Shown here one piece after another: positions 9,700 through 58,589 of a DNA stretch of 64,000 nucleotides. Both the position numbers and the translations under genes were made by a program. This DNA comes from Candidatus Pelearchaeum maunauluense (lineage in GTDB: Archaea > Thermoproteota > Nitrososphaeria_A > Caldarchaeales > Caldarchaeaceae), in the NCBI GenBank assembly GCA_030059675.1, contig JANVYQ010000003.1, forward strand, positions 35,547 through 99,546, given 5' to 3'. The notes beneath the pieces were generated by a model. That model had not been told where the DNA came from and made no database searches. It worked only from the letters and a program-made list of their open reading frames with translations. The number at the start of each line of letters is the position of its first letter. Within the stretch, counting starts at the first letter, position 1.

Positions 9700-10600
9700 C
9701 TAGGGGAGCTCAACCCAGTCATCTAGGAAGGAACGCGCGTGCTGTGTGTCAACGCGGTAGGCGAATGCGGAGCCCATGCAGTTTGCGTTTAAGACGAATA
9801 AGTTGACGCCTACTATCACTTCTTCTCCTGTTTCTGTTTTGTGGATTACGGGGCCTCCTGAGTCTCCGAAGCATGTTCCTCCTGAGCCTGTTCCTAGTCC
9901 TGGGTCGTTGGTGTATTGTATGTTGAATCCATCGTTGAGCGCGCTGCGCAGGTCTATGAGCATTACTTCACCCACGTAACGGGTTCGTTCTGCTTGGAGG
10001 AATGGCCTTACTGACTGAAGTCCATAGCCTACTACTGTGAAATGAACCTCTTGGAGCCCTCTTCGCGTGGCTAGAGCGTCCAAATAGCCTTCGGGGGCTA
10101 GCTTTCCATATTCTGGCAGATCTATCTCCTCGTCAAAGATTATTAGACCAACATCATGGGTGTCGGGTATGGTTAGTCTTCCCGTCCACTCAGGATGTGC
10201 TATAGGTGTGCCTATCTCTCCTCCGCCGCATGGGTATCCTGCCACATCTGGCGTGCATGGTTCTCCAGGCTCCCAGTCAGGGTCAAGTTCTATGGGTCCT
10301 ACTTCAAACCATACCTGCGCGTGTGTGGGTATTATGTCTAAGTCTGGGTCGTAGCCTGCGCAGTGGCCCGCAGTTAGGAATATGTTGGGCGCTATCTGCG
10401 CGCCGCTACACCTCCAATAGGGGTATTAGGTTTCCTTCCTCGTCGGTGGTGTAGAAGACCGCCAGCCCGACGTATGGGTATCTATTGTCAGAGTCGGGCT
10501 CCCCAAACTGTATAGCCAGGACACTGCCCTGCGCTAGGGCTGCCAACGTCAACGCTGCTATAACAAGCGATATGGGTAGCTGTTTTCCAAAGTTTTTCAT
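9700..10600 (-). pseudogene. Secreted trypsin-like serine protease (S1 family) split by a frameshift near a GGGG run around 10411-10414. Signal peptide ORF 10406..10600, body 9700..10402
   Basis: MKNFGKQLPISLVIAALTLAALAQG signal. In the other frame, IFLTAGHCAGYDPD (His), HDVGLIIF (Asp), GDSGGPV (Ser). The full catalytic triad is present but split across two frames. Confidence 0.65.
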
Positions 10601-10674
10601 ATTAGCTATTTTAATTTCATGAATCCTTTATAAAATTTTATAATAAAACCACAAACTTGATTATCGTTATATTG

Positions 10675-11643
10675 CTATTTCCGCGCTGTATGCCTTTTCG
10701 TGAGAGGCGGTAGGTCTGCTAACGTGGCTAATCCTACTCCTGTTTTGTGTATTAGTTTCGCTACGTTGAGTATTACTGAAGCCGTCGCTATATCTCCTGG
10801 TGTTCCGCTGCTTCTCCACGTTATGCTCGGCTCCCCCTCTATTCTTATCTCATCATACTCCTCGTTATCCAGCCTGGCTACGAATCTAAGCCTTATCTGT
10901 ATATTCTCCTTTGTTATGGCTTCTGCGATTCCCTGAAGACCCAAGGCCCGCCCATCATCGCCCAGCAATGGTTTCTGCTCTTCATGAACATTTACGAGCT
11001 CCAGATTCAGCAGATGTGCGAGAAGAGCTATGGATTCTGCATACCCTACGTGGCCTGTAATCTTCCCAGAGTTCATTAACTCCATCCATTCATTCTCCGA
11101 AAGCCCTATTCCGATTTTCTTTTGGAAGCTTTGCCTACGTCTTGAAGCGTCAAGACTTCGCGTTATGCTAATTGATTTTATCTCGTGGCATGGTGTTGTG
11201 AGTATTGCTGGCAGGTAGTCAAAGAGGAATCCTGGGTTTATGCCAGCTCCTACTATTCTTGCCCCTCCTTTCTTTGCTTCTTCATTAAGCTGTGCTGCTA
11301 GTGATGGGTAGCGATAATAGGGATAGACTAGCGTCTCGCATGTTGATACTACATCAACACCGAGCTTGGCGCATAGGCTTAGCTGCGGATATACCCTATC
11401 CAAGTAGCTGCCTGTGGCGTGTATTACTACGTCGGGCTTGGTTCCTTCAATAACCCTCTCAGCATCACCATCGATTTTAACACCCATATCTCCTATCCTT
11501 AATACTTCACCGACATCTGCGCCCACTAAAGATGGATTAACATCAATCACCCCGACGCATCTAAATCCCTGTCTCAACGCCAGAGCTGTTATAAGCCGTC
11601 CTATCTCACCAAAGCCATACATAACGAAAGTTTGGGGCTCCAT
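10675..11643 (-). CDS. NAD(P)-binding oxidoreductase of the dihydrodipicolinate reductase (DapB)-like/amine dehydrogenase family
   Basis: N-terminal Rossmann MYGFGEIGRLIT, 322 aa, DapB-like layout. Confidence 0.5.
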   Translation of the reverse strand: MEPQTFVMYGFGEIGRLITALALRQGFRCVGVIDVNPSLVGADVGEVLRIGDMGVKIDGDAERVIEGTKPDVVIHATGSYLDRVYPQLSLCAKLGVDVVSTCETLVYPYYRYPSLAAQLNEEAKKGGARIVGAGINPGFLFDYLPAILTTPCHEIKSISITRSLDASRRRQSFQKKIGIGLSENEWMELMNSGKITGHVGYAESIALLAHLLNLELVNVHEEQKPLLGDDGRALGLQGIAEAITKENIQIRLRFVARLDNEEYDEIRIEGEPSITWRSSGTPGDIATASVILNVAKLIHKTGVGLATLADLPPLTKRHTARK

Positions 11644-11922
11644 AACTACCGCTCCACCACACCCTTATTAAATAATAAAAATAATTCTTAACTACGTTGG
11701 AAATCCGCCGTAAGAGAGTTCTCTGGCCTCATCTTATATGGTGGAATCTGAACAGAGTCGTTTTAAGTAGTGATTCTACGTTAAATGGAGTTTTTTTACA
11801 TTTTTTGGTTAAATGCGGGAAAAATCAACTTTGTGATTCTATCTAGGTGTTTTCATGGATAAATTATGGTGGTTGTTTGTTGGTGCGGGATGGTGATTGG
11901 CAAGGAGAAGGCTGGTGGAGGC

Positions 11923-12279
11923 ATGATGCGGGTAGTGGGAAAGCACGTATATGGAAATCTCTATGACTGTGATTCATCCATCATTAATGATGAGCGAAGG
12001 CTTGTTCAGGTGGTTAGAGAAGCGGCCGAGATAGCCAACGCTACACTAGTGGAGGTATATTCATGGAGTTTCGGAGGAGACATGGGCGGAATCTCGGTAA
12101 TAGCGCTGGTCAAAGAAAGCCATATAGCACTACACTCATGGAGCAGATACAATTACGCAACTCTAGACGTATATACCTGTGGAGAGCACACCAACCCAGA
12201 AAAAGGATTTGACTACATAGTTGAAGCGTTAAAGCCCAGGAAAGTAGTTAAACATGAGGCAAAGCGCTCATTAGAGTAA
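11923..12279 (+). CDS. speH: Pyruvoyl-dependent S-adenosylmethionine decarboxylase proenzyme family (SpeH-like; crenarchaeal paralogs can be arginine decarboxylase)
   Basis: MMRVVGKHVYGNLYDCD..., ESHIALHSW...DVYTCGE motifs. ORF-track start 11866 is probably too far upstream. Confidence 0.7.
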   Translation: MMRVVGKHVYGNLYDCDSSIINDERRLVQVVREAAEIANATLVEVYSWSFGGDMGGISVIALVKESHIALHSWSRYNYATLDVYTCGEHTNPEKGFDYIVEALKPRKVVKHEAKRSLE

Positions 12280-12281
12280 TT

Positions 12282-13436
12282 TCACATTATAGCACCTTCC
12301 CTCTTTAAGGCTGTTATCTCCTCATTACCCATGCCGAGCATTCTAAGCACTTCCTCAGTATGTTCTCCGAGTTCGGGAGCATGCGCTGTTATTTCTTCGC
12401 TTCTTATACATGATGGTGTTGAGAGTATCGTAACTGGTCCAAGATTTGGATAATCTTTACTGAATACTATATCCCTCTCAGCTACCAGCTCGCTCTTAAG
12501 CGCTTCATCAAGCTCTAGAACAGGAGCGAAGCACTCCACCTTGGAGTAAAGAATCTCAACCCATTCTTCAAGGCTCTTCGTCCTAAATAGCTGGCGTAGC
12601 TCTTCGGTTGCTTTACTGTCGTATTGTTTTTCTATGAGGTCTTCCCTGCCTACTGTCTTACAGAACTTCTCCCATATATGCGGTTCTAGGGGCATTCCTA
12701 GAGTTATGTATCGCCCATCCTTCGTCTCATATACGTTATAGCATGGTAAGCCACCCATCAATACATGCTCCCCACCCCGCGGCACTTTACCGCTTGCTAG
12801 ATACTCAGCAATGAAGAGAGATATGAATGGAAATACGCTCTCAAACATCGTTATGTCTAGCTGTTTCCCCCTGCCGCTTACTTGCCTCTCCAGAAGAGCT
12901 GAAAGTATTCCCAGCACTGCCGTTAATGCTGTGGCGAAATCAGCCAATAATACACCAGGAACTATAGGCCTGCCGTTCTCCTGTTTCATCATGCCTAAAG
13001 CGCCTGTAAGCGCCATGATGTTTATATCGTGAGCGGAAAGCCCAGAATACTTACCTCCATAACCAAATGCGGAGATTGAGCAGTAAATAATCCGTTCATT
13101 CAGTTTCCTAATTGATTCATAATCAATCCCTAGTCGTCTGGTTGTGGATGGATTAAAACCAATGATCACTATGTCCGAAACTTGGCATAACCTATAGAAT
13201 ATGTCGCGCCCAGCTTTTGATTTTAAATTGATGGCTATACTCTTCTTACCCCTATTAACAATAAGATGTAAGATACTAACATCTCCACGTATTGCGAGTT
13301 TTCTAGTTGTATCGCCGACTCCTGGTTGCTCTATCTTTATAACCTCTGCACCAAGCTCTGCAAGAAGTAGTGTAGCGTAACTCCATGGTGGCATGTTTGT
13401 AAGGTCCAGCACCCTCACCCTGCTAAGCGGCCTCAT
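12282..13436 (-). CDS. CoA-transferase family III (CaiB/BaiF-like)
   Basis: VRVLDLT...LLAELGAEVIKIE N-terminal signature, 384 aa. Confidence 0.8.
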   Translation of the reverse strand: MRPLSRVRVLDLTNMPPWSYATLLLAELGAEVIKIEQPGVGDTTRKLAIRGDVSILHLIVNRGKKSIAINLKSKAGRDIFYRLCQVSDIVIIGFNPSTTRRLGIDYESIRKLNERIIYCSISAFGYGGKYSGLSAHDINIMALTGALGMMKQENGRPIVPGVLLADFATALTAVLGILSALLERQVSGRGKQLDITMFESVFPFISLFIAEYLASGKVPRGGEHVLMGGLPCYNVYETKDGRYITLGMPLEPHIWEKFCKTVGREDLIEKQYDSKATEELRQLFRTKSLEEWVEILYSKVECFAPVLELDEALKSELVAERDIVFSKDYPNLGPVTILSTPSCIRSEEITAHAPELGEHTEEVLRMLGMGNEEITALKREGAIM

Positions 13437-13547
13437 GCGAGATGAATCAGTAACTACTATCGCATATTAGCATAATGAAAATTAACAGCGTTATTTCTCT
13501 ATAGTTGGAGTCTAAATACTTAAAGCGTATAAGACATTCCACACTTA

Positions 13548-15473
13548 TTGATTAGTCCTATGCCCAGCGTAATCTTGGGTGAGTCTGGTAAGTCTGATTT
13601 TCTGATGGGAAACGAGGCAATAGCACGGGGAGCTTTGGAGGCAGGTGTCGCTGTCGCTGCAGGTTATCCTGGAACGCCTTCATCCGAGATAATAGATACG
13701 TTGCTGGAGGTAGCTGAGGAGTTTGGGATTTACGTAGAGTGGTCTGTTAATGAGAAGGTCGCTCTAGAGATAGCTCTCGCGGCAAGTTTCTGCTGGGCTA
13801 GGTCGCTCTGCGCTATGAAGCACGTAGGCCTAAACGTTGCCCACGACGCTCTAGTGAATGCCTGCTACATAGGAGCGCGAGGAGGCTTCGTAATAGTCTC
13901 CGCGGAAGACCCTGGAGCATGGAGCTCGCAGAACGAGCAGGACAACAGATACATAGCCATGCAGGCCTACATGCCAGTCTTTGAGCCCTCAGACCCGCAG
14001 GAAGCAAAAGACATGATCGTCTATGCTTATGACTTCTCTGAGCAGCTGAATACTCCAGTCCTGCTCAGAACCGTGACGTGCGTAAGTCATTCTACGGGGA
14101 GTTTTGTCTTCGGCGATATCGTAAAGCCTGAAAGGCGGGTATATTTTGAGAAGCGGCCAGACTTGCTCATATACGATTCCGCCGGAGCTCGTAGGAATCG
14201 TCTAGCATTAATTAAACGATTCGAGAAAGTGCGGGAGGCAGTAAATAGCGTCCCCTTCAATAAGATGATGTTAAACGATGGCAGTGTGGGGGTTATTGTT
14301 TCAGGGGTAGCATACCGCTATGTGATGGAAGCTCTCAAAATTCTAGACAGAAAGGATAAAGTCTCTCTTCTGAAGATAGGTACACACTATCCCCCTCCAA
14401 GGGAAGCGATAGTAAGGTTCCTAGGCGCTGTTGATAGCGTCATGGTTGTTGAGGAGGTTGAGCCCATTCTAGAAACGCTTGTAAAGAGTATAGCTTATGA
14501 GGAGGATATAGATGTAGAGATTTGCGGACGGAGTATTCTTCCTAGAGGTGGCGAGCTAACCCCGCGCATAGTCTTGGAGGCGTTATCCAGCTTTCTAGAC
14601 ATAGATAATCCGCTTGATGCTGATGCGCTGGATAAGGCATGGGGCTACAGTAATAGCCTGCCACCACCTAGGCCGCCTACCCTGTGCCCAGGCTGCCCAC
14701 ACAGGGCAAGCTTCTACTCAATCTCCACAGTGGCTAAGAGGCTTGACAGGAATCCCAAGCTCTACGGGCTGGACCAACTATATGGGGAGAAAACAGAAAC
14801 AATACTGCCTGGCGATATAGGGTGCTACGGCCTGGCTTACCTACCGCCGTTCAAGGCAATAGACACGATAATCTGTATGGGCGCAGGCCTGGGGTTTGCC
14901 AACGGCCTAGCCAGGCTAGTAAAACAGCCAATAATAGTAAGCGTGGGAGATTCTACATTCTTCCACGCAACAATACCAGCTCTGATAAACGCCGTCTACA
15001 ACAACGCGCGGATAGTTCTGGTAGTGCTGGATAATGACGTAACAGCTATGGCTGGGGAGCAGCCCCATCCAGGTAGTAGCATCGTTTCCCAAGAGGGTAA
15101 GAGGCTTATAAAGATAGAGGACGTGGCCCGCGGATGTGGTGTGGAGCTGGTGCGCGTGGTCAATCCAGGAAACTTTGAAGAAACTCAAAAAGCGCTGGTG
15201 GATGCTCTGAAACATGATGGGCCGTCTGTCATAGTTCTTAGACGGCCTTGCGAGCTTCTACGAGTGCGTGAAAGGCTGCGCAAAGGAGAACCCCAGTCCC
15301 CATACATGGTGCTCACCGAGAAATGTACTGGCTGCATGATATGCATCAACCAGTTTGGATGCCCTGCTATAGTCAAAGCAGGTGATAAAGTGATGATAGA
15401 TTCCTCCATCTGTACTGGATGCGGGGACTGTGCTAAGGTCTGTGTTCCTAAGGCTATTGTGACGTGTGGTTAG
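13548..15473 (+). CDS. iorA: Indolepyruvate:ferredoxin oxidoreductase alpha subunit (IorA)
   Basis: GNEAIARGALEAGVAVAAGYPGTPSSEI TPP-enzyme N-terminus; C-terminal 2x[4Fe-4S] CTGCMICINQFGCP...CTGCGDCAKVC; 641 aa. Confidence 0.8.
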   Translation: MISPMPSVILGESGKSDFLMGNEAIARGALEAGVAVAAGYPGTPSSEIIDTLLEVAEEFGIYVEWSVNEKVALEIALAASFCWARSLCAMKHVGLNVAHDALVNACYIGARGGFVIVSAEDPGAWSSQNEQDNRYIAMQAYMPVFEPSDPQEAKDMIVYAYDFSEQLNTPVLLRTVTCVSHSTGSFVFGDIVKPERRVYFEKRPDLLIYDSAGARRNRLALIKRFEKVREAVNSVPFNKMMLNDGSVGVIVSGVAYRYVMEALKILDRKDKVSLLKIGTHYPPPREAIVRFLGAVDSVMVVEEVEPILETLVKSIAYEEDIDVEICGRSILPRGGELTPRIVLEALSSFLDIDNPLDADALDKAWGYSNSLPPPRPPTLCPGCPHRASFYSISTVAKRLDRNPKLYGLDQLYGEKTETILPGDIGCYGLAYLPPFKAIDTIICMGAGLGFANGLARLVKQPIIVSVGDSTFFHATIPALINAVYNNARIVLVVLDNDVTAMAGEQPHPGSSIVSQEGKRLIKIEDVARGCGVELVRVVNPGNFEETQKALVDALKHDGPSVIVLRRPCELLRVRERLRKGEPQSPYMVLTEKCTGCMICINQFGCPAIVKAGDKVMIDSSICTGCGDCAKVCVPKAIVTCG

Positions 15474-15477
15474 AGCT

Positions 15478-16593
15478 ATGAAGGTGGATAAAATCATCTC
15501 GAGTGTCGGTGGTCAGGGAACTATGCTGGCCGCCCGCGTGTTGGGCAGAGCCGCCTGCCGAGCAGGGGTAAACGCCCTAGGAGCAGAGCTTCTTGGACTC
15601 TCACAACGCGGCGGCTCGGTAGTAAGCCATATACGAATAGGAGACGATACATACTCACCAGTGATAATGGAAGGCACGGCAGAGGGAGCTGTGGCGGCCG
15701 TCCCCAAGCTAGCCGCCGCGGGAGTTCAGATAATAGTAGGCCCTCTAGCAACCATTGAGACCAAAGCCGTCTTGGATTTCCTGAACTCTAGGAAGATAGT
15801 TGCGATAAGCCCATCAAGCACGGGAACCGCCGCGCGTGTTAAGGATGACTTCGTATTCAGGATGCCGCCCCCAGACGTTTATCAAGCCCCAGCAATAGCT
15901 AGGATTGCGTGGGAGGTTGGTATAAGAAATCTGGTCATACTCGCTAGGAATGATGATTATGGTAAGGGGCTTGCCGATGGTGTTGAAGAGACGTTCATAC
16001 AGCTCGGTGGTAAGGTTACCAAGCTGCTCTACGACTATACTCAGCCAGACCTGAGCGCGGATGTTGAGCGAGCAAGCGCGGCTGTGGCTAACTATGGGGC
16101 TAACGAACAAACGGGCGTGGTCGTGATAGGGTTTGACGAGACGGTCAAAATATACGACAGGGCCAGGCTTGACCCCGTGCTATCTGAGGTTAGGTGGTTC
16201 GGTAACGACGCCGTAAAGAGGCCGACCTTCCTACCTCCCGAATCCAAGGAGGAGATAGCCGAGTTCCAGAGACAGGTACGCATACTCGGAACAGCCCCAG
16301 CGGTAGGGCCTGAAGACAACCTATTAGTCAAGAGATTCGTTGAGCGTTATAAGGAGAGATTTGGCGAGGAACCAAGCCTCTACTCATACTACGCATACGA
16401 CGCAGCCATGGTTGCGATGCATTACTACGGCGTAACTGGCTGGAAGCTGCTGGACGAGTATGGAGACAACGCTACTCCCCTATATGACATATGGACTGTA
16501 GTTAAACAGCCAGACGGAACATGGACCTTCAAGGTAGTCGGACTATACGACGGGGCTACGGGCTCCATCAAATTCTACGAAGAAGTTGGATGA
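15478..16593 (+). pseudogene. Chimeric ORF: first ~80 aa of IorB (indolepyruvate oxidoreductase beta) fused in frame to a LivK/LivJ-type branched-chain amino-acid binding protein that lacks its signal peptide and first ~90 residues
   Basis: N-terminus MKVDKIISSVGGQGTMLAARVLGRAA...SQRGGSVVSHIRIGDDTYSPVIMEG is IorB-like. From ...IIVGPLATIE...SPSSTG...FRMPPPD...ARNDDYGKGLADGVEETF...QPDLSADV onward it is type-1 periplasmic binding protein. No alternative frame continues IorB. Confidence 0.55.
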
Positions 16594-16675
16594 CCTAGCA
16601 AAACCATTACTCCCATATCTCCTCTTCTATTATTTTTGGCGTTAAGATACATAAACACCCAATAATGTTGGGCGA

Positions 16676-17449
16676 GTGTGCGGTATGGCTGAGATACTGG
16701 CGACACGCGAATTAACAAAAAAGTTCGGCGGCCTCATAGCAGTGAATAACGTAACTATGAGCATTAATCGCGGTGAGGTAGTAGGTCTAATAGGCCCTAA
16801 CGGGAGTGGGAAAACAACACTAATAAACGTAATATCAGGCCTTTACAAGCCTGACGCTGGGAAAGTTTACTTCAATTGAGAGGATATAACTGGTCTTGGT
16901 GCTTGGGATGTTTTTAAGAAGGGGTTGGTGAGAAATTTCCAAGTACCCAGACTTTTTGGCGGTATGCTGGTCTTTGAGAATGTTATGACTGCTTTCCGCG
17001 GCCAGAGGGGTGAGAACCCTATTCTGGCTCCGTTTAAATCCATGTGGGGGGAGCAGGAGATTAGCCTAGCTAGAGACGCGCTAAACATACTCTCACAGCT
17101 ACAGCTGGCCCATGTAAGGCTTAATTGGGCTACGGAGCTAAGCGGCGGGCAGATGAAGCTCGTTGAGATGGCCCGCTCACTAGCCTCGCAGCCCCAGATG
17201 CTACTCCTAGACGAGCCAGCGGCTGGAGTAGCTCCCAAACTAGCCCACGAAATATTCAAAAACATAATAAAACTAAACAAAGAACTGGGAATAACATTCA
17301 TCATAATAGAACACCGCCTGGACATACTATTCTACTACGTGGAACGCGTATTAGTCATGAACAATGGAAAACTAATCTTTGACGGAAGGCCTGAGGATGT
17401 TTACAAGGATAAGCTGGTCATAGAGGCTTATCTTGGTGAGGCTGAATGA
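16676..17449 (+). pseudogene. livG: LivG-type ABC ATPase with an in-frame TGA at 16877-16879 (GKVYFN-stop-EDITGL; the position is normally Gly/Asp)
   Basis: Walker A GPNGSGKTT before the stop. Q-loop, signature and Walker B follow in the same frame (16880..17449). Confidence 0.6.
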
Positions 17450-18165
17450 GTAATGCCATAATCGAGGCTAGGGGAGTTACTGCTGGTTATGGTAAGTCGG
17501 TGATAATTGAGGATAATGATATAGTTATTGAGCGGGGTAAGATTACCTCTATAGTTGGGCCTAACGGCAGTGGGAAGAGTACGCTTCTAAAAACGATTGT
17601 CGGGCTTACGCGTCTTTTTGCGGGGCATATAATTTATGATGGCCATGAAATAACGCGTATGCAGCCTGAGGAGAGGAGTAGGATAGGTATTGGATACGTG
17701 CCGCAGATTGCTAACATCTTCCCCAACCTCACGATAATTGAGAACCTTGAGATAGGCGGCTACATGAGGAAGAGTAAGGAGGAGGTTAAGCACGATATTG
17801 ATGAGGTGATGGATATCTTTCCTGTTTTGCGTGAGCGTGCGCGGCAGAAAGCTGGGACGCTAAGCGGAGGGGAGCGGCAGATGCTTGCTATGGCGCGCGC
17901 TTTGATGGCAAAGCCGAACATACTCCTGCTTGACGAGCCTGCTGCCGCTCTAGCTCCTATAGTGGTTTCACGCATCTTTGCGAAGATTCGCGAGATTGTT
18001 AGTAAGGGGATAACCGTAGTGCTCGTTGAGCAGCACGCAAAACGCGCATTAGAGTTATGCGACTACGGGTATGTAATGACTAGTGGAAGAATAGCCATGC
18101 GGGGAAGCGGCAGGGAAATACTCTCCGACGAGAAATTTGTAGAGGCCGTCCTAGGGAGGAGGTAA
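17446..18165 (+). CDS. livF: LivF-type ABC ATPase, apparently intact
   Basis: GPNGSGKSTLLKTI, LSGGERQMLAMARAL, LLLDEP; 239 aa; 4-nt overlap with livG. Confidence 0.8.
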   Translation: MSNAIIEARGVTAGYGKSVIIEDNDIVIERGKITSIVGPNGSGKSTLLKTIVGLTRLFAGHIIYDGHEITRMQPEERSRIGIGYVPQIANIFPNLTIIENLEIGGYMRKSKEEVKHDIDEVMDIFPVLRERARQKAGTLSGGERQMLAMARALMAKPNILLLDEPAAALAPIVVSRIFAKIREIVSKGITVVLVEQHAKRALELCDYGYVMTSGRIAMRGSGREILSDEKFVEAVLGRR

Positions 18166-18179
18166 GGCGCCCCCTGGCT

Positions 18180-19112
18180 ATAGACCTCACCCTACCTCTT
18201 CTAAACTCACTCGCCCTAGGGAGCCTCTATACCCTAATGGCCCTTGGGCTAACTATAACGTTCTCAGTAACAAGAATACCCAACTTCGCGCACGCGGAGT
18301 TGGTTACAGTGGGCGGATACGTTACCGCCGTGCTCGTTAATTTCATGGCGTTCCCCCCATATCTGGCTCTACTGTCCGCTTTCATAGCATCGGCAATACT
18401 AGCCCTAGGCATGGACGAGCTTGTCTTCAAACCACTATACAAACGAGGCTCCAGGCCGTTATTCCTATTGGTGGCTAGTATAGGTGTGGGCCTGATAGTG
18501 CGCTACACACTCTTCTCCCTTGCCGACGCTACAGGAAACATAACAATACAAACTAATGTGTCGGTAAACCCAATAATGAGGTTTGGTCGCGCATACATAA
18601 CCATGTTCCACGCCATAGTTATACCAGTAACAATAGCCATAGTCATAATCCTACACATACTCTTCCATTACACGCTCATGGGAAAGGCTCTGAGGGCTAT
18701 TTCGGACAACGAAGACCTAGCTAGAGTCTCTGGAATACGGATATACAGGCTACGGCGAGTAGCGTGGCTGATAGCTGGAGGGGCGGCTGGACTAGCGGGA
18801 GGCTTGTGGTCAATAAGCCTGATTATAGACCCCAACTTTGGATGGGACACACTTCTACGGATATTCGCATCCTCGATACTCGGCGGATTAACAAGCTTCT
18901 GGGGGACGATAATAGGCGGATACATAGTCGGCTTCGCAGAGAATATGGGAATAGCGACGCTCAATACCTGGTTTGGAATAAACACAGCATATAGGCCACT
19001 CATATCCTTCACCATCATAGTCGCGGTATTCCTGATAAGACCGCGCGGCTTCGCTGGTATAGATGTGAGAAGTATAATGTCTCGGTTGGTGGTGAGCAGG
19101 CCACGGTCCTAG
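18180..19112 (+). CDS. livH: LivH-type permease. The conserved N-terminus (I/M)DLTLPLLNSLALGSLYTL begins at an ATA codon (18180) where ATG is expected. The first canonical start (ATG 18237) would remove about 19 conserved residues
   Basis: In-frame stop-free extension upstream of 18237 matches the LivH consensus N-terminus (MDLLLQQLLNGL...). No ATG/GTG/TTG in that extension. Confidence 0.55.
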   Translation: MDLTLPLLNSLALGSLYTLMALGLTITFSVTRIPNFAHAELVTVGGYVTAVLVNFMAFPPYLALLSAFIASAILALGMDELVFKPLYKRGSRPLFLLVASIGVGLIVRYTLFSLADATGNITIQTNVSVNPIMRFGRAYITMFHAIVIPVTIAIVIILHILFHYTLMGKALRAISDNEDLARVSGIRIYRLRRVAWLIAGGAAGLAGGLWSISLIIDPNFGWDTLLRIFASSILGGLTSFWGTIIGGYIVGFAENMGIATLNTWFGINTAYRPLISFTIIVAVFLIRPRGFAGIDVRSIMSRLVVSRPRS

Positions 19113-19216
19113 ACCAGCTATACAGCATAACACCATTCATAACAACACTACTAACGTTCTACGCCGTCTATCTAATACTAGCCCTAAGCCTAAACCTAAT
19201 CTACGGATACTGTGGA

Positions 19217-20188
19217 GTGCCAAACTTTGGTCATGTATTCTTCCAGTCGGTAGGTGCTTACGTGGCTGGGAACATGACGGCCAACGTGCTTTACATGGTT
19301 GCGGTAGCTGGTGGTGATATATGCTCCGTAGCAACCGCAGAGGTGAGGCGTAACCTAGCTATAACCAGCCCACCACTTGCTATAGGTATGTTCGTAGCCT
19401 CGCTAGCTTTAGGCGCCGTCGTGGGCGGATTGCTCGGATATATAGCAAGCTACCCAGCACTCAGGTTGAAAGAAGACTATCTCGCAATCACGCTGATATT
19501 CATAGGCGAGATAGGCAGGATAATAGCGCGAAACGAAGAAGGAATAGCCTGCGGCCTAGTCGGCCTAACAGGGGTACCAAACCCCTTCATATGGCTAGGC
19601 GACCCCAACCTATCGCTAATAGCATACACCATTATGTCAATAATCATAGCAGGCCTCATCTTCATATTCCCGCAGAAGCTCTCCAACTCCCCCTTCGGAA
19701 GACTGCTGAAGAGTGTTCGCGACGACGAGACAGCCGCGATGAGCTTGGGCAAGAACGTAGCCAAGGCGCGGGGCTGGGCCATGATAGTAGGAAGCGCAAT
19801 AGCAGCAGTTGCAGGCGTGCTCAAAGTCTTCTACGCACAGGGAGTATTCGCAGACGACTACATACCATTAACAACGTTCGTAGTCCTCTCCATGGTAATC
19901 CTGGGAGGAATGGCTAACAATAGGGGAGTAATCCTAGGAGCACTAATCATAACACTGCTGGACTTCCTAATAGCGCCCTCACTCTTCAGACTGATGGGAA
20001 TAACAATACAATTCGACATAACATACATCAAATACATCATAACAGGCCTAATCATAGTCCTAGTCCTCCTATTCAAGCCGCAGGGAATATTACCCGAAAA
20101 ACCAATAGAGACGCCTGCCTTAAGCTTGGTTAAAAAGGAAGATAAGTCATTAAGCAATAAATCCTTACAGAAAAACAGAATGAGCTGA
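19217..20188 (+). CDS. livM: LivM-type permease. Conserved N-terminal TM region (LDQLYSITPFITTLLTFYAVYLILALSLNLIYGYCG) lies upstream of the GTG at 19217 in a stop-free frame with no canonical start
   Basis: GLN-like LNLIYGYCGVPNFGHVFFQSVGAYVAG motif; 323 aa from the GTG; upstream frame is open back to 18995. Confidence 0.55.
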   Translation: MPNFGHVFFQSVGAYVAGNMTANVLYMVAVAGGDICSVATAEVRRNLAITSPPLAIGMFVASLALGAVVGGLLGYIASYPALRLKEDYLAITLIFIGEIGRIIARNEEGIACGLVGLTGVPNPFIWLGDPNLSLIAYTIMSIIIAGLIFIFPQKLSNSPFGRLLKSVRDDETAAMSLGKNVAKARGWAMIVGSAIAAVAGVLKVFYAQGVFADDYIPLTTFVVLSMVILGGMANNRGVILGALIITLLDFLIAPSLFRLMGITIQFDITYIKYIITGLIIVLVLLFKPQGILPEKPIETPALSLVKKEDKSLSNKSLQKNRMS

Positions 20189-20253
20189 TAAACGCTCTGC
20201 GGCGTTTAGGCTAAATTAAGGCTTTATATAACGTAGATAGCAGGTGGCAGGGT

Positions 20254-20772
20254 TTGGCAAATATAGTAGGTGGTTGGAAGGGGAGGTTCTACGAGGACTT
20301 TACGGTTGGTGATGTGTATATACATCCTTATGGGAGGACAATAACCGAGGCGGACAATATCTGGTTTACCTTGCTGACCATGAATATGAATGAAATTCAT
20401 TTTAACGCTGATTATGCTGCTGAGACTGAGTGGGGTAGGCCGTTGGTTAATAGCGCGCTTACTCTAGCTGTTGTTCTTGGTATGAGCGTCATGGATGTGA
20501 GCCAGAATGCGATAAACCTTGGGTGGGAGGAGATAAAGCTACCCAACCCCGTGTTCGCTGGAGACACCCTATACGCCCAGACGGAGGTGCTGGAGAAACG
20601 CGAGTCCCGCTCGCGCCCGCACATGGGGATAGTCAAGCTAAAAACAATAGGCTATAACCAGGACGGGAAGATAGTGCTGGAAATGAAGCGGACAATAATG
20701 GTTTGGAAGAAGGCTTATGCCCCAAGGTCTAAGATTGAGGAGAAGCGTAGGAAGATAGCTGGCGAGAAATGA
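20254..20772 (+). CDS. MaoC-like (R)-specific enoyl-CoA hydratase / hot-dog fold dehydratase
   Basis: 172 aa, hot-dog pattern with the conserved ...EIHFN... (H not D) region. Confidence 0.7.
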   Translation: MANIVGGWKGRFYEDFTVGDVYIHPYGRTITEADNIWFTLLTMNMNEIHFNADYAAETEWGRPLVNSALTLAVVLGMSVMDVSQNAINLGWEEIKLPNPVFAGDTLYAQTEVLEKRESRSRPHMGIVKLKTIGYNQDGKIVLEMKRTIMVWKKAYAPRSKIEEKRRKIAGEK

Positions 20773-21851
20773 TAGGCAATAGATTCGCCCCTCTTGAGGG
20801 GATACGCGTGATAGAGATAGGCCACTTCGTAGCAGCGCCCAACCTTGGGGCGTTGTTGGCCTATTTCGGGGCTGAGGTCATCAAAATAGAGCCCCCCAGC
20901 GGCGACGAAAGCAAGAGAGTAGCCCCGTGGGCATACTACATATTCTCACAAAACAAGAAGAGCATAGCTATAGACCTGACAAAACATGAGGGGCTTGAAC
21001 TATTCAAAAACATCATCAAAACCTGCGATGTTCTAATTGAGAATCTCTCACCTAAGGCGATTGAAAAGCTGGGCATTGGTTATGATGCTCTTTCAGCTCT
21101 CAACCAGCGCTTAATATACTGCTCCATCAAGGGGTTTGCAAGCGATAGCCGAGACTGGAGGAGACCAGCTTTTGACACCGTTGCGCAGGCCGAGTCTGGC
21201 CTCTTAGCCGCTCTAGGCCGCGAGGGTGAGGAGCCCATAAGGATAAACAACCCCTGCATAGACATGGGGGCCGCCGCCTACGCGCTCGCCGCAATAGCTA
21301 TGGCGATAATGCAGCGCGCAAAAACGGGTAGGGGCGCGTATATAGAAGTCCCATTACTGGATGTGGCTGTATATTGGAACGGTTACTGGATAGCATACTA
21401 CTCATTAACAGGCCGTGAGCCAGCTAGGCTAGGGGCTGGACATGCTGGATACTCCCCCTACGGCATATATAAAGCGCGGGATGGCTATGTATTCATAGGC
21501 GTAATAACCGACGAGCAATGGCTAAAATTATGTGAGCGGCTTGGAATAACTCCGCCAGAGAATCTGAGGAGCATGCAGTCAAGGATAGAGAATCGTCTAG
21601 AGGTGGACAGGCTTGTTGGGGAGAGCGTAGCTAGGTTGAGTGTTGAGGAGGTTTTAAAGAGGCTGCGGGACCTAGTTCCAGCCTCGACTTTAAAAAGTGT
21701 AAAGGATGTTGCTGAAGACCTAGAGCTGGAGAAACGAGGCGTGATAGTGCCCGCTAAGGTTGATGATAAAGTCGTAAGAGTAGCCCAACCACCTATAAGA
21801 ATAAACAAAAACAAGCCCAGTACAAATTATTGTGATAGACAGCAGAGCTGA
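20769..21851 (+). CDS. CoA-transferase family III (CaiB/BaiF-like), second copy; 4-nt overlap with the MaoC gene
   Basis: IRVIEIGHFVAAPNLGALLAYFGAEVIKIE signature. Confidence 0.8.
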   Translation: MIGNRFAPLEGIRVIEIGHFVAAPNLGALLAYFGAEVIKIEPPSGDESKRVAPWAYYIFSQNKKSIAIDLTKHEGLELFKNIIKTCDVLIENLSPKAIEKLGIGYDALSALNQRLIYCSIKGFASDSRDWRRPAFDTVAQAESGLLAALGREGEEPIRINNPCIDMGAAAYALAAIAMAIMQRAKTGRGAYIEVPLLDVAVYWNGYWIAYYSLTGREPARLGAGHAGYSPYGIYKARDGYVFIGVITDEQWLKLCERLGITPPENLRSMQSRIENRLEVDRLVGESVARLSVEEVLKRLRDLVPASTLKSVKDVAEDLELEKRGVIVPAKVDDKVVRVAQPPIRINKNKPSTNYCDRQQS

Positions 21852-21861
21852 TGTGCATAAA

Positions 21862-22482
21862 CTATTGGAAGAGCTGGGCTATAGTGTTGATGAGATAGCG
21901 CAACTGTATAAGAAAGGTGTTATAATAAACATAAAAAATATTATAATTTATTTTCGTTAAGGGCTCAACAACTATCTTGCCGAACATCCCCTTCTCTTGA
22001 TGGAGTACTGGGAATGTCCCTCCTGCTCTCTGACACACATACCAGTAGGTTCCCGGCTCGTCTATGGTAAATTCAATAACACGCATTTCGTCAGGCTCTA
22101 CCTCGGCCTCTATTTCGTTATAAGCCATGTCAATCTCCTCCATCATCATGGCTATTCTCTCATCTGCTTCCTCGGGGTCTGTTATCCCCTGCTCAAGTAG
22201 CTTCTGCGCCATTTCTTTCATCATCGTAAGAGCCTGGTCCTTATCCTTTACCACCATAAACTCGTGAGGATGCGAGCCTGCGTTTGTGAGCGTTATTCTA
22301 ACAAGTTGGCCTGCTTTGATTGTTAATGTTGGGCCGAAGCCTGGCCTATCAAAACCATAATCCACCATAGTCAGCTCAAACACAGCAACCTTCGGCTGAA
22401 GCATCGGCACTACGACAAATATGGCCGCACCAGCTACTACAGCTACGACAACTATAACAGCTATTAAAGGGCCTGCTTTCAT
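21862..22482 (-). CDS. Membrane-anchored type-1 copper protein (sulfocyanin/plastocyanin-like cupredoxin) with an acidic helical insertion
   Basis: N-terminal TM; Cu ligands GSHPHEF ... YWYVCQRAGG..H...GMFGKIVV. Confidence 0.6.
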   Translation of the reverse strand: MKAGPLIAVIVVVAVVAGAAIFVVVPMLQPKVAVFELTMVDYGFDRPGFGPTLTIKAGQLVRITLTNAGSHPHEFMVVKDKDQALTMMKEMAQKLLEQGITDPEEADERIAMMMEEIDMAYNEIEAEVEPDEMRVIEFTIDEPGTYWYVCQRAGGTFPVLHQEKGMFGKIVVEPLTKINYNIFYVYYNTFLIQLRYLINTIAQLFQ

Positions 22483-22565
22483 CGGCTAGCGGATTCAAAA
22501 ATATAATCTTAAAACGATTAACCGTACCAGTTCGGTAATTTTTATAACCTTCATTAACAACAACT

Positions 22566-23291
22566 ATGATGAAGATGGCCGGGCGCGTCTTCGAGGTCAA
22601 TATTTTACTCGACCTAGACTCGCTGCCGGACCCTGAAAAGAAATGTACAGCTCTCAAGTTGGTTAAAGATGGTAAGGGTCCGCTTGAGTGTCTTAATCCG
22701 ATGTCTGATGTTCGTCATTTTATTCGGCTTAAGGATGGTCAGATTACTATTGGAACCCAATCGCCTGATTCCTGTCCATTCTATAAGATATACTCGTCTC
22801 TACACATACATGTGGTCAAATGCAGCGTTTTTCATAATCATAGTCTAGCCACTATAATATGTACGGAGAGCGCGTTGGATGGTTTTTATAAGAGGCTGGA
22901 GGAGCTTGGCGCCAATTATAGGTTAGTTTCGGTCAGACAGTTATCAACCGCTGCTCAGCGTAAGCAGAAAATGACTGCTAACCAGATGTTCGCGCTCTTT
23001 ACAGCGCATAGCTTGGGCTATTTTGAGAGCCCATCAAAGGCAAGCATTAGAGATGTAGCTACCGTTCTTGATAAATCGCCCTCAACCGTGTCTGAGCTCA
23101 TTAAGAAGGGTGTGAAAAACTTGTTGGATATAATTAAGGAGAGAAAAGACTTTAAGGATCTACTAAATCTCGCTATATTTCCTCGTACTTCATTCTTATT
23201 GGTTGGCTGTCCAAAAGTCAATAGTCATTTTAATTTAATACTATGCGCGTTCTACTGTGCTATGACTATTCCGCACATGTTCGGTTTATGA
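22566..23291 (+). CDS. Putative regulator with C-terminal HTH_10 (Bat/DmsR-type) helix-turn-helix
   Basis: MTANQMFALFTAHSLGYFESPSKASIRDVATVLDKSPSTVSELIKKG. Confidence 0.4.
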   Translation: MMKMAGRVFEVNILLDLDSLPDPEKKCTALKLVKDGKGPLECLNPMSDVRHFIRLKDGQITIGTQSPDSCPFYKIYSSLHIHVVKCSVFHNHSLATIICTESALDGFYKRLEELGANYRLVSVRQLSTAAQRKQKMTANQMFALFTAHSLGYFESPSKASIRDVATVLDKSPSTVSELIKKGVKNLLDIIKERKDFKDLLNLAIFPRTSFLLVGCPKVNSHFNLILCAFYCAMTIPHMFGL

Positions 23292-23333
23292 ATTTAAGAG
23301 AGCTTCTAAACGGCTAACCGCTGGTCGAAACAA

Positions 23334-23999
23334 ATGGCTGCGCCAGCTCCATCCGCGGAAATATGGAATTCTCTATTCATGATGTATGTAACATCTGCAG
23401 TTGTAATCTCCGCAGTAGTGTTGGCAATTCTAGGATATTTCGTACTACGTTATAGACAGCCATCAAGCAGTCTAGCCGATGGTGGGCAGGACGAACCTGA
23501 GTTTAGAATAGGCGCGGAGCCCACTAGGGGTAGTGCTAAAGTTGCCATAGCTCTCAGCGTAATATTGGGGCTGCTCTTCGTTGGCCTCACGGCATCAACC
23601 TTCAGCGCTATGGAGTTCATGGAAGAAATACCCGAAGACAACCCAAATGCTCTGCACATTAAGGTAACAGCATTCCAGTGGGGATGGCAATTCACCTACC
23701 CCAACGGCCGGACAATAACAGGCGAGCTCAGAGTGCCCGTAAATACTCCTATAGTATTGGAGATAACCAGCAGGGATGTCTTTCATACATTCGCTATAGC
23801 TGCGTTCAAGGTTAAGAAAGACGCCATACCAGACAGAATTAACTTCGCATGGTTCGAGGCTAAAGAAGCAGGAGAATATAGGATACAATGCTACGAGCTC
23901 TGTGGAACAGGGCACGCCAAGATGATAGCAACTCTCCTAGCGATGGAGACGGAGCAGTTTGAAGCGTGGTATGGTAAGTTGAGTGAGGAGAAGGGGTGA
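23334..23999 (+). CDS. Heme-copper oxidase subunit II (CuA-type)
   Basis: FQWGWQFTYPNG, ITSRDVFHTF, CYELCGTGHAKM CuA ligands. Confidence 0.85.
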   Translation: MAAPAPSAEIWNSLFMMYVTSAVVISAVVLAILGYFVLRYRQPSSSLADGGQDEPEFRIGAEPTRGSAKVAIALSVILGLLFVGLTASTFSAMEFMEEIPEDNPNALHIKVTAFQWGWQFTYPNGRTITGELRVPVNTPIVLEITSRDVFHTFAIAAFKVKKDAIPDRINFAWFEAKEAGEYRIQCYELCGTGHAKMIATLLAMETEQFEAWYGKLSEEKG

Positions 24000-24005
24000 T
24001 TATGG

Positions 24006-26459
24006 GTGGCTCATGCAAACAATAAACCAAACCCACTTGTAGTCTGGCTTTTTACAACAAACCATAAAAACGTGGGAATACTCTACCTAGTGACATCCCT
24101 CTACTTCCTTGTGGTTGCTGGTATTCTAGCTCTCACGTTTAGGATGCAGCTGAGCGCGCCCAACATGGTATTCCTCGCAGCAGACTCTTACAACCAAGCG
24201 GTTACGCTGCATGGTCTCTTCATGCTTCTCTGGGTAACCACGCCGCTGGCCGCTGCTTTTGCCAACTACGTGGTTCCAATCCAGATAGGCGCTAAGGATA
24301 TGGCGTTCCCGCGCCTTAACGCGCTGAGCTACTGGCTCTACCTAGCAAGCGGCATAGTTGCGCTAAGCAGCTTCTTCGCCCCAGGAGGCACGGCTGACTG
24401 GGGATGGACAACATACGCGCCTCTAAACACGCTACAGTATAGCCCGCAAGCAGGAGGCTCGCTAATGGGCCTAGCAATACTGCTCCTACTCAGCTCCACG
24501 ATAGTAGCGACCTCAAACTTCATGGTAACAATATTCAGGCTACGCGCCCCTGGTATGAAGCTCTCATACCTCCCACTATTCTCAATATTCTGGCTGGTAA
24601 CCCAGTTCCTGCTACTATGGGCTTTCCCAGCCTTCGCCGCCCCCCTGCTCATGCTGGTCTCCGATAGGGTCCTTGGAACAGTATTCTTCACAGCAGCGGA
24701 AGGAGGAGCGCTACTCTGGGACCACCTACTATGGTTCTTCGGCCACCCAGAGGTTTACATACTCGTCCTACCAGGCCTGGCTATAGCTGGAGACGTCCTA
24801 GCAGTGTTTAGCCGAAGGCAGCTCTATGCCAAGAAAGTCATAATCATAGCAGTAAGCGTAGCCGCGTTCCTAAGCTACGTCGTATGGGTACATCACATGT
24901 TCATGACTGGCATACACCCAGGGCTAAGGGAGGTCTTCAACATAACGACAGAACTAATCTCAATACCCTTCGGAGCTATAATGCTCTCATATATCCTAAC
25001 CCTCTTTGGAGGCAGGATAAGGGCGACGACACCTTTCCTATTCGCTCTAGGCTCTGTGATACTCTTCATAATAGGTGGGGCCTCAGGCGTCTTCAACTCT
25101 TCGGTAGCCCTTGACGTGGGGATGAGAGGAACCTTCTGGGTGGTAGGGCACTTTCACTACACCATAGTGGGCGGCGGGATAACTGGCCTGATAGCTGGAC
25201 TATACTACTGGTGGCCGAAGATGACTGGAAGAATGTTCAGCGAAAAACTGGGCAAACTACACTTCGCAATCTACATGATAGGCTTCAACCTACTCTACTT
25301 CCCGATGCACCTACTCTACGACATGCCGAGAAGAATATTCTTCTACGACGCCACAACGGGCTGGGGCCCGATAAACATGCTCATAACCATGGGCTCCTGG
25401 ATCTTCGCGTCATCATTCATAATACTGTTCATAAACCTCATCAACAGCCTTCGCCATGGCCCTAAGGTGGGCGACGACCCGTGGGGAGGTGCCAACTACT
25501 CGCTTGAGTGGAACGTTCCTTCTCCGCCTCCAGAGTTCAACTTCCCGAAAGGCGTTCCGGTGATAACCGCGCAGGGCCTTGAGTTTAGGCAGCCTTGGGA
25601 GATTAAGATGGGCATAACAACAACTGGCGGCCAGCAGCTATACGGCACCACAGCCCTCCCTACAAACGGCGGGAGCCATGTGGCTGAGCACGGCGAGGAG
25701 CATGGGCCGCATCTAAGCCCATGGCCCTTCATACTCTCAATAGGTGTTGCACTAACCATGATCGGCCTGGTGTTTGGAGTGCCTCTACTGCTGCAGGGAG
25801 TGGTGATATTCATCGCCTCCATAGTGGGCTGGGCTTGGGAGGATGTTAAAGAGAAGTTCCACGTAGCTATTGAAGCGCTGGGCGAGAAGTGGCCATTTGA
25901 CAGGGTTGAGAACGTGCCCCTAGGGATGTGGTTCTTCCTCTTCGGTGAGGTGGCGCTCTTCGGCCCGCTCTTCGCAGCCTACTTCTTCGTCCGCGCCAAC
26001 AGCGCCTACACAGGCTTCGCGTGGCCTCTGCCAGGTCAGATACATAGCACAGTCATGGGAGCAATCTCCACAATAATCCTACTAACAAGCGGCCTCGCAA
26101 CATCACTGGCGCTAGTGGCGATAAAGAACAACAACCAGCGCGGCCTCAAGGCAGGGCTCCTCACAGCATTCATACTAGGCCTAGCCGTGCTGTTCATAGA
26201 GGGATTCCAGTGGGCTGAGCTCTTCGCAGAGGGCTACACGTTCGGAACAGACATAGCGGCCAGCATCTACTACCTAATAACGGGCATCCACGGTGCGCAT
26301 ATACTGGCTGGCCTGCTGATAATAATCTACCTACTGGCAAAAGCCTACAAGGGAGGCTACAACGCGGAGAAGCACATGGGCGTATATGCATTCGCCATAT
26401 ACTGGGGCTTCGTGGTGGGCGTATGGCTATTCACGTTCCCACTATTCTACCTAATATGA
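24006..26459 (+). CDS. Heme-copper oxidase subunit I fused to subunit III (SoxM/AoxB-like)
   Basis: GHPEVYILVLPGLA, 817 aa, C-terminal ...HGAHILAGLLII... subunit-III-like block. Confidence 0.9.
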   Translation: MAHANNKPNPLVVWLFTTNHKNVGILYLVTSLYFLVVAGILALTFRMQLSAPNMVFLAADSYNQAVTLHGLFMLLWVTTPLAAAFANYVVPIQIGAKDMAFPRLNALSYWLYLASGIVALSSFFAPGGTADWGWTTYAPLNTLQYSPQAGGSLMGLAILLLLSSTIVATSNFMVTIFRLRAPGMKLSYLPLFSIFWLVTQFLLLWAFPAFAAPLLMLVSDRVLGTVFFTAAEGGALLWDHLLWFFGHPEVYILVLPGLAIAGDVLAVFSRRQLYAKKVIIIAVSVAAFLSYVVWVHHMFMTGIHPGLREVFNITTELISIPFGAIMLSYILTLFGGRIRATTPFLFALGSVILFIIGGASGVFNSSVALDVGMRGTFWVVGHFHYTIVGGGITGLIAGLYYWWPKMTGRMFSEKLGKLHFAIYMIGFNLLYFPMHLLYDMPRRIFFYDATTGWGPINMLITMGSWIFASSFIILFINLINSLRHGPKVGDDPWGGANYSLEWNVPSPPPEFNFPKGVPVITAQGLEFRQPWEIKMGITTTGGQQLYGTTALPTNGGSHVAEHGEEHGPHLSPWPFILSIGVALTMIGLVFGVPLLLQGVVIFIASIVGWAWEDVKEKFHVAIEALGEKWPFDRVENVPLGMWFFLFGEVALFGPLFAAYFFVRANSAYTGFAWPLPGQIHSTVMGAISTIILLTSGLATSLALVAIKNNNQRGLKAGLLTAFILGLAVLFIEGFQWAELFAEGYTFGTDIAASIYYLITGIHGAHILAGLLIIIYLLAKAYKGGYNAEKHMGVYAFAIYWGFVVGVWLFTFPLFYLI

Positions 26460-26470
26460 GGTGGTGAAAG

Positions 26471-26764
26471 ATGCGAGAAGAATGGCAGCTTGTAGCGATT
26501 TACACAGTAATAATAGCGGCGCTGGTTGCTGAGGTCATAGTGGGCTCCAGCTGGATGACGCTGGGGCAGACAGCCCTGATAGGTGTGCTGGTGATAGCAA
26601 AGCTACAGGCGGCTCTAGTCTTCACATTCTTCATGTTCGGCAAATACGGCACACGCTCAGTGGCTTTAATAATGCTCATATCAGTAAGCACGCTGCTCCC
26701 ACTATTCCTGGCATTCGCCTTCTCCATAGAGTTCCCACCACATGCGGTTGCTGGAGGACGCTGA
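26471..26764 (+). CDS. Small three-TM oxidase subunit (subunit IV-like)
   Basis: 97 aa, hydrophobic, position within the oxidase operon. Confidence 0.4.
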   Translation: MREEWQLVAIYTVIIAALVAEVIVGSSWMTLGQTALIGVLVIAKLQAALVFTFFMFGKYGTRSVALIMLISVSTLLPLFLAFAFSIEFPPHAVAGGR

Positions 26765-29970: not shown

Positions 29971-30064
29971 TTAATTATACTACCTAAAGTTAATATTAAA
30001 AGACTATATCCCACCAGCCTAACATTTAGGATGAACATATCATGAAGAGAGAAAATCTGCACAA

Positions 30065-31397: not shown

Positions 31398-31402
31398 AAG
31401 AA

Positions 31403-32143
31403 GTGAAGACTAAAGGAACAACCATAATTATTTTTCTCCTCCCATCTATACTATTCCTAAGCCTATTCGTAATATATCCGATGCTGTATAACTTCTACAT
31501 AAGTCTCTTCAAGTGGAAAGTGGTCAGAATAGAATCATTTATCGGCCTGGATAACTATGTCAAGCTACTTAACAATCCCCAATTCCATAGGGCGTTCATA
31601 AACAACCTAATCTGGATACTTATTCACGTACCCACAACAACAGTTTTAGGACTTCTCCTAGCTGTTCTCCTCAAGCGCGTCAAGGGCTCTTACATAATCA
31701 AGTCCGTAATCTTCCTAGGTATGGTCATACCCCAGATAGTTGTCGGCATAATGCTGCTCTTCATGTTCGACTCGGATGCACTGGATTCGCGGTAGTAGGT
31801 TATTCCGCTGGGCTTGAAGGAATACCCAAAGACCTATACGACGCCGCGGTTGATGGAGCTTCTCCTTTCAAAACATTCTGGCACATAACTATACCCATGT
31901 TGAGGCCCGCAACAATAGTTGTGGTTACTATGACCCTAATCTGGGTTCTAAAGATATTCGATATAGTTTATGTAGCCACGCGCGGAGGGGCCTGGAGGAG
32001 CTACAAACGTAATGGCTTATATGATGTATGAGCAGGGTTTCGTCTTCTATAAGTGGGGGGTAGCTGCCGCTATAGCGACGATATTCACCGTGATAATACT
32101 GGTGTTCTCAATATATCTGGTGCGCTCTATGGTGAGAAGATGA
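31403..32143 (+). pseudogene. MalF/UgpA-type ABC permease broken by two frameshifts (about 31780; GGGG run about 31986)
   Basis: Conserved segments MLLFMF / SAGLEGIPKDLYDAAVDGASPFKTFWHITIPMLRPATIVVV...VATRGG / GGATNVMAYMMYEQGF... lie in three frames. Confidence 0.65.
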
Positions 32144-32967: not shown

Positions 32968-32969
32968 TA

Positions 32970-58492: not shown

Positions 58493-58585
58493 GGGGCCGT
58501 GGTCTAGTGGCTATGACGCCGCCCTTACACGGCGGAGAGCGGCAAACATGCCCGCAAGCCGTGGGTTCGAATCCCACCGGCCCCA
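58493..58585 (+). tRNA. tRNA-Val (anticodon TAC) with an approximately 20-nt intron at a non-canonical site in the variable-loop region (about 58538..58557)
   Basis: Acceptor GGGGCCG/CGGCCCC, U8, D-arm GTCT-AGTGGCTA-TGAC, anticodon arm CCGCC-CTTACAC-GGCGG, T-arm GTGGGTTCGAATCCCAC. 25 nt lie between position 43 and the T-stem where 5 are expected. Confidence 0.7.
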
Positions 58586-58589
58586 CCTT

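Follow-up and report, generated by a model that had tools for sequence, protein, structure and literature searches.

Directly behind the iorA gene of Candidatus Pelearchaeum maunauluense, a single open reading frame joins the remnants of two unrelated genes, which raises the question of whether it encodes a working fusion protein or is the scar of a deletion. It was studied within a window of 64,000 nucleotides, this being the whole stretch of DNA analysed. The frame follows iorA at once and is listed at 15466-16593 when read from a GTG (375 amino acids); from the ATG at 15478 it occupies 15478-16593 (+) and gives a product of 371 amino acids. This 371-aa product is identical to GenBank MDJ0269737.1 of the same organism (202,821-bp contig), which is entered as an ordinary protein under the name "penicillin-binding protein activator". 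Its likeness to the LppC/LpoA family (PF04348), LppC also having a Peripla_BP-like fold, is weak, with a match of 19.3 bits that stays below the gathering threshold of 28.8 and covers residues 80-189 only. To our knowledge, peptidoglycan penicillin-binding proteins activated by LpoA are absent in archaea, and the name is an annotation artefact.

The hybrid consists of residues 1-66 of IorB followed in frame by residues 119-446 of a LivK-type substrate-binding protein (SBP), less 23 amino acids. The IorB-derived 5' part, codons 1-66 of about 201, lies at 15478-15675 (+) and aligns to positions 4055-4252 of the corresponding locus in a sister species (L001). In the 375-aa version, PF01558 (POR) was matched at residues 15-83, covering profile positions 1-69 of 173 only, and residues 6-73 of the hybrid shared 79% identity by BLASTP with residues 3-70 of the 210-aa Caldarchaeum IorB (P0041). 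With the IorB family (TIGR03334, PF01558) the hybrid thus has in common these first 66 residues, including the GGQG motif, as well as its place, since iorB is the gene right behind iorA in all iorAB operons; the sister species and Caldarchaeum share this adjacency, and here iorA ends at 15473. It differs from the family in its truncation and in scores far under the family cutoffs. The score for TIGR03334 was 61 bits (cutoff 205.8), and the remaining IOR_beta models of NCBIfam reached 38-70 bits (cutoffs 222-348); these sub-threshold matches were confined to the first 70-80 residues, with a weak LivK-type match besides. No full-length IOR_beta or PF01558 match at the curated cutoff was obtained for the hybrid, and the IorB-derived segment cannot form an IOR beta subunit. 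A sequence-only reading of this DNA had already recognised an IorB N-terminus after iorA; the identity holds, while the length is 66 residues and not about 80.

The SBP-derived 3' part (15676-16593, +) was delimited by BLASTP, blastn and alignment. From the junction to its end, the hybrid is about 92% identical (gaps excluded) to residues 119-446 of the 446-aa sister SBP (P0001), with one clean gap of 23 residues in the alignment, and at the nucleotide level it matches L001 10353-11099 and from 11158 onward with 90.8% identity. Homology to the SBP families is clear from PF13458 (Peripla_BP_6; 65 bits against a gathering threshold of 31.7) and PF01094 (61.5 against 25.4), the PF13458 match beginning at residue 70 with profile position 52 of 343. 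Like the LivK/LivJ-type proteins of archaeal SBP-livGFHM operons, this remainder stands ahead of livG-livF-livH-livM, and it is the orthologue of the membrane-anchored sister SBP. Unlike them, it lacks the N-terminal membrane anchor, the Thr/Val-rich linker and the first beta-alpha-beta of lobe I (together residues 1-118, including the first 51 profile positions), as well as the conserved internal segment of 23 residues, so that neither a complete two-lobe domain nor an export or anchor sequence is left. The earlier reading, which let the SBP run to the C-terminus from roughly residue 95 of the mature protein, was right about its identity, but the start falls at residue 119 of the precursor and the internal loss had been missed. 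It had also held that the rest of IorB and the SBP signal peptide with the first lobe were absent in all frames. In tblastn searches of the 64-kb window with the full-length sister proteins, no trace of the missing parts of either protein was found in any frame, nor a full-length IorB in an alternative frame; what is lost of lobe I is its first beta-alpha-beta.

The nearest relative is Candidatus Pelearchaeum sp. S146_89, from a submarine volcano, at about 90% nucleotide identity. In its locus L001 the genes are, in order, a dapB-like gene, AdoMet decarboxylase, CoA-transferase, iorA and iorB (201 aa); a fused POR gamma-delta (319 aa), POR alpha (415 aa) and POR beta (322 aa); a cupredoxin (176 aa) and, on the opposite strand, a class-III aminotransferase (453 aa); the SBP (446 aa), livG, livF, livH and livM; and finally MaoC, CoA-transferase, cupredoxin, HTH_10, cox2 and cox1. 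The three POR genes were assigned by NCBIfam to the pyruvate/2-ketoisovalerate family and the aminotransferase to a subfamily resembling glutamate-1-semialdehyde aminomutase. Window 11430-26598 is collinear with this locus at 86-91% identity save for two clean gaps at the breakpoints, the three blastn blocks being window 11430-15683 with L001 1-4260 (86%), 15674-16420 with 10353-11099 (91%) and 16410-26598 with 11158-21336 (90%). The window is thus without L001 4253-10354, which is 6,102 bp or 2,034 codons, and without a further 69 bp (23 codons). Since the products of the missing genes had no tblastn match anywhere in the 64-kb window, these genes were lost and not moved nearby. The proposal of a single deletion from iorB into the SBP gene is upheld by this comparison, in which both flanks are collinear, except that the two genes were not neighbours, five genes standing between them. 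The sister arrangement does not hang on one assembly, because four assemblies of that species from different samples (mutual identity at least 99.3%) all contain the full SBP; every part of the 6.1-kb segment that each of their contigs reaches is present, and two of the four cover the whole span.

Two side observations concern the genes of this segment. At position 835 of sister contig L003 (SAMN12239308), a 1-bp deletion splits porB into pieces of 253 and 76 aa in one of the four sister assemblies, and in the sister population, too, this oxidoreductase may be polymorphic or not strictly required. The class-III aminotransferase is linked to SBP-livGFHM in two arrangements, divergent and upstream in Pelearchaeum sp. 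(L001 8524-9885, -) and downstream in a JGI contig (L013 5475-6824, +), which suggests that the transported substrate and the aminotransferase are functionally linked.

The anatomy of both junctions was examined against the sister sequence. At the larger deletion, what remains in the window at 15674-15683 (+) is a single copy, GCACGGCAGA, of a direct repeat that is imperfect and about 10 bp long; the blastn matches overlap here, and the breakpoints in the sister are GCGCCGCAGA in iorB (codons 66-69) and GCACCGCAGA in the LivK-type SBP gene (codons 118-121), which agree at 9 of 10 bp as GC(G/A)CCGCAGA. With their surroundings they read GGCGCCGCAGA in iorB and AGCACCGCAGA in the SBP gene, and window 15673-15683 reads GGCACGGCAGA. 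The 69-bp deletion, in frame and in the C-terminal region of the SBP part, left at 16410-16420 (+) one copy of a perfect 11-bp repeat, GGTTGCGATGC, of which the sister has two copies 69 bp apart. Both deletions are thus flanked by short direct repeats of which one copy is kept, and neither junction contains a mobile element or other foreign sequence.

This anatomy is the signature of slippage or microhomology-mediated joining, from which the mechanism may be deduced. In the lineage of P. maunauluense, one deletion of 6,102 bp would have arisen between two short similar direct repeats, most likely by replication slippage or microhomology-mediated end joining. This event would have taken away iorB beyond its first third, the SBP gene up to and including codon 118, and five whole genes (POR gamma-delta, alpha and beta, which make up a complete 2-oxoacid:ferredoxin oxidoreductase; the cupredoxin; and the class-III aminotransferase). 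As 6,102 bp amounts to a whole number of codons, the reading frame continues from one remnant into the other and spans 371 aa. A second slippage deletion, of 69 bp, would have arisen between the perfect 11-bp repeats in the SBP remnant. The presumed net effect is the loss of a module for amino-acid uptake and oxidation, with iorA as an orphan subunit. The hybrid frame is very probably a deletion scar, that is, a hybrid pseudogene left by a genuine and recent microhomology-mediated deletion. As in other microhomology-mediated deletions that make fusion pseudogenes in prokaryotes, one repeat copy of 10-11 bp is kept, the intervening DNA is precisely removed, remnants of unrelated genes are fused and point lesions occur in the same operon. 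There is no difference in kind; particular to this case are the chance preservation of the frame at each deletion and the loss, with the larger, of a coherent amino-acid catabolic module of five further genes. The event is a textbook short-repeat deletion giving a fusion pseudogene, an ordinary kind of gene loss.

Damage was also found in the liv genes downstream. livG (ABC ATPase; 16685-17449, +) is a pseudogene in which GGA is changed to the nonsense codon TGA at 16877-16879 (codon 65) by a single G-to-T change, with no indel relative to the sister. The gene is thereby split into frames of 67 and 174 aa, one matching each end of the ABC_tran profile, and across the stop it remains 96.9% identical to the 254-aa sister livG. 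In livH (permease; 18174-19112, +) the start codon is lost, the TTG of the sister being CTG here beside a 1-bp insertion in a run of C. The first usable ATG, at 18237, would cost 21 aa of the first membrane segment; the frame has 291 aa against 312 in the sister, and its BPD_transp_2 match in Pfam begins at profile position 15. livF (ABC ATPase; 17446-18165, +) is intact, with 239 aa, a full ABC_tran domain and 96% identity to the sister protein, and the frame of livM (permease; 19103-20188, +) is intact too (93.8%).

Four lesions therefore lie within 15478-19112, namely the two deletions, the premature stop in livG and the missing start of livH. The neighbouring cox1, cox2, MaoC and HTH_10 regulator genes are intact, and so are all nine genes compared at 40-56 kb. 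The 69-bp deletion, the nonsense codon in livG and the lost start of livH show that the liv transporter operon is no longer maintained. The suspicion that both parental functions were probably lost agrees with the incomplete IorB and SBP and with the damage to livG and livH.

Selection on these genes was estimated as dN/dS against the sister species by the Nei-Gojobori method, at a dS of about 0.3-0.55. Values were 0.03-0.08 for the SBP remnant and livGFHM (0.03 for the remnant itself) and 0.01-0.17 for neighbouring genes, so that no rise over the neighbours was seen in the remnant or the operon. The ratio was low even in a heavily frameshifted sugar operon of the same window and has little power at such divergence. 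These values would fit, rather than prove, an inactivation that is recent relative to the species split.

Three further departures were noted in and behind the operon. livM has ACG where distant relatives have a GTG start (window 19103-19108; L001 13846-13851), and no canonical start occurs before 19217, although the N-terminal 38 codons are in frame and conserved. Since the sister species has the same ACG, this is not a genome-specific lesion, and it may be a non-canonical start or reflect coupled re-initiation. A family III CoA-transferase gene (20769-21851, +) carries a +1 insertion at 21828 that shifts the frame for about the final 33 residues; the product has 360 aa against 386 in the sister, and the displaced C-terminus is readable in another frame with 64% identity. 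A cupredoxin-like gene (21862-22482, -) has lost its stop codon by a 3-bp deletion around 21961-21965 and has gained an AT-rich tail of 31 aa (206 aa against 175 in the sister).

At a distance of 14 kb from the liv operon, a sugar ABC importer is heavily pseudogenised (window 29344-34050, both strands). It is a TrmB-linked system composed of an SBP_bac_1 protein, two permeases and MalK, with damage at about 29.9-34.05 kb; the adjoining TrmB regulator gene (27321-28439) is intact, and at the sister locus L096 all four importer genes are intact (362, 276, 295 and 458 aa). Of the SBP_bac_1 gene there remain fragments, namely 30280-31158 and further pieces upstream of it. Neither permease gene is whole, one of them having a 145-bp deletion at about 31780, and a Pfam match is left only in a 150-aa fragment at 32515-32967. 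In MalK, a -1 frameshift lies at 33798 and the LSGGEQ-Q motif is interrupted by an in-frame stop. About nine 1-bp indels were counted across the importer, mostly in short homopolymer runs.

The best surviving alternative is that the joins and the point lesions come from misassembly, chimeric library molecules or a strain-merged consensus, the locus being intact in the organism. The genome is indeed a metagenome-assembled one (MAG 146_bin.21), obtained from fumarolic lava rock at Mauna Ulu, Hawai'i, and assembled with metaSPAdes at k = 21-77; Illumina libraries are explicit in the methods for the Chile samples only (PMC10547907). The junctions are thus known from assembled sequence, fragmented genes are noted in the published description of the MAG, and the exact 34-nt junction sequence had zero matches in the genome and metagenome contig collections searched. 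Against this, a de Bruijn assembler such as metaSPAdes is unable at k of at least 21 to collapse sequence across repeats of 10-11 bp, and a G-to-T nonsense substitution is not typical of assembly error. Two independent deletions in the same, already broken gene fit decay better than error. Moreover, the lesions are gathered in two transporter operons, and no fault was seen in long genes nearby, among them those for RNR (879 aa), COX1 (817 aa) and PheRS. The concentration of lesions in two operons beside clean, long, essential neighbours points to real decay, a grouping by operon being the expected outcome of selection and not of noise, and random sequencing error as a cause of the frameshifts is ruled out by the same clustering. 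An artefact is on balance improbable; the deletion may be polymorphic in the population.

Taking the deletion as real, the product could still be a new and functional fusion, expressed with IorA and acting in the cytoplasm, for example by coupling ligand sensing to IOR. Both deletions preserved the reading frame, for which the chance is about 1 in 9 if they were random, and slight room remains for selection on read-through. The frame starts 4 bp behind iorA, so that it is probably co-transcribed with it and translated; the dN/dS of the SBP remnant is low, and the GenBank annotation treats the product like any other protein. The low ratio, however, mainly records the history before the deletion, the comparison species standing at a dS of about 0.45. 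A conserved family with this chimeric architecture, which the sequence-only reading had itself named as the finding that would speak against a deletion, did not appear in either protein search. None of 63 word-index matches in 5.8 billion clustered proteins carried both PF01558 and PF13458, and the architecture was absent from the best 150 of 6,655 HMMER matches among 1.84 billion representatives, in which the best stretch lay in the SBP part, with the query start at 10 or later and mostly at 54-90.

The structural evidence also speaks against a working fusion. When the hybrid was modelled by AlphaFold2 with an alignment of both parent families, the pLDDT was 32-36 for residues 1-65 and 53-65 around the 23-aa deletion, with a confident model for the second lobe only. 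The IorB-derived part, 66 of about 201 residues, is left unstructured in the model, which rules out the idea that the N-terminal beta-alpha-beta of IorB structurally replaces the one lost from the SBP. Part of lobe I and a segment kept in all homologues are gone, the anchor that places the parent SBP outside the cell is absent, and the partner set LivGFHM is itself incomplete, with livG and livH broken. The product has no export or anchor signal, its IorB fold is reduced to one third and its binding domain is incomplete. It is therefore expected to be non-functional, and a functional fusion is very unlikely.

The direction of change was judged from the genes at the breakpoints. The ancestral gene order was deduced from one sister species, as distant SBP loci cannot polarise it: in more distant relatives, full-length SBPs head SBP-livGFHM operons with differing upstream neighbours. 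All IorB homologues seen have 200-216 aa, and all SBP homologues seen are full-length (about 390-460 aa) and include the 23-aa segment; the N-terminal 118 residues and this segment are kept in all 18 aligned full-length SBP homologues. The reverse reading, that the 6.1-kb segment is an insertion gained in the S146_89 lineage and the window is ancestral, draws on there being one close relative only with the same flanking synteny, but it gives no explanation for the missing two thirds of iorB and first 118 SBP codons, parts present in every homologue examined, with breakpoints inside both genes, and is effectively refuted by the truncation of both. As judged from these sequence comparisons, the state of the window is the derived one.

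The deletion would leave iorA, the gene for the alpha subunit of indolepyruvate:ferredoxin oxidoreductase (13560-15473, +), without its companion. The gene looks intact, with POR_N, TPP_enzyme_C and Fer4 domains in Pfam, 92.6% identity to the sister iorA over 636 aa and a dN/dS of 0.07; the sister iorA exceeds the IOR_alpha cutoff of TIGR03336 (733 bits against 650.9). Of the 120 top-ranking IorB homologues in the database, none was attributed to P. maunauluense, so IorA is probably without a cognate beta subunit, as the earlier reading had anticipated. Alternatively, an IorB may exist as a distant paralogue or lie within the missing 4% or so of the genome. Within iorA itself, a -1/+1 indel pair 6 bp apart at 15290-15296 forms a compensated frameshift relative to the sister and alters two residues near the C-terminal ferredoxin domain.

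The main value of these results is that they correct the annotation of the type genome of the genus and what is deduced from it about metabolism. MDJ0269737.1 should be treated as a hybrid pseudogene, and the adjacent liv genes should not count as a working branched-chain amino-acid importer, nor iorA as a working IOR, in the metabolic reconstruction of P. maunauluense; in the published description, branched-chain amino-acid binding and transport proteins were counted as evidence of amino-acid uptake (PMC10547907). In addition, the locus offers two clean, datable short-repeat deletions in an uncultured thermophilic archaeon.

Seen alongside the damaged sugar importer in its vicinity, the hybrid hints at a lineage-specific erosion of heterotrophic functions. 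Tentatively, and with more doubt than confidence, it may be read as one visible stage in a selective loss, still under way, of the uptake and oxidation of organic nutrients by the terrestrial fumarole species P. maunauluense after its split from deep-sea vent relatives. Three observations point that way: the loss of an amino-acid module (IOR beta, the POR/VOR-type enzyme, the aminotransferase and the Liv transporter), the broken TrmB-linked sugar ABC importer within the same 64 kb, and the report that three of four AOR genes are fragmented in this genome (PMC10547907). If the pattern held genome-wide, this type genome would show a free-living thermophilic archaeon partway through a departure from heterotrophy, and metabolic reconstructions that count such genes as functional would need revision.

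Elsewhere in the window, a scan for promoters and terminators gave counts at chance level, the patterns used being of bacterial type and not applicable to an archaeon. ARAGORN placed a tRNA-Val(TAC) gene at 58493-58587 (+), which at 95 nt is about 20 nt longer than a standard tRNA and may hold an archaeal intron.
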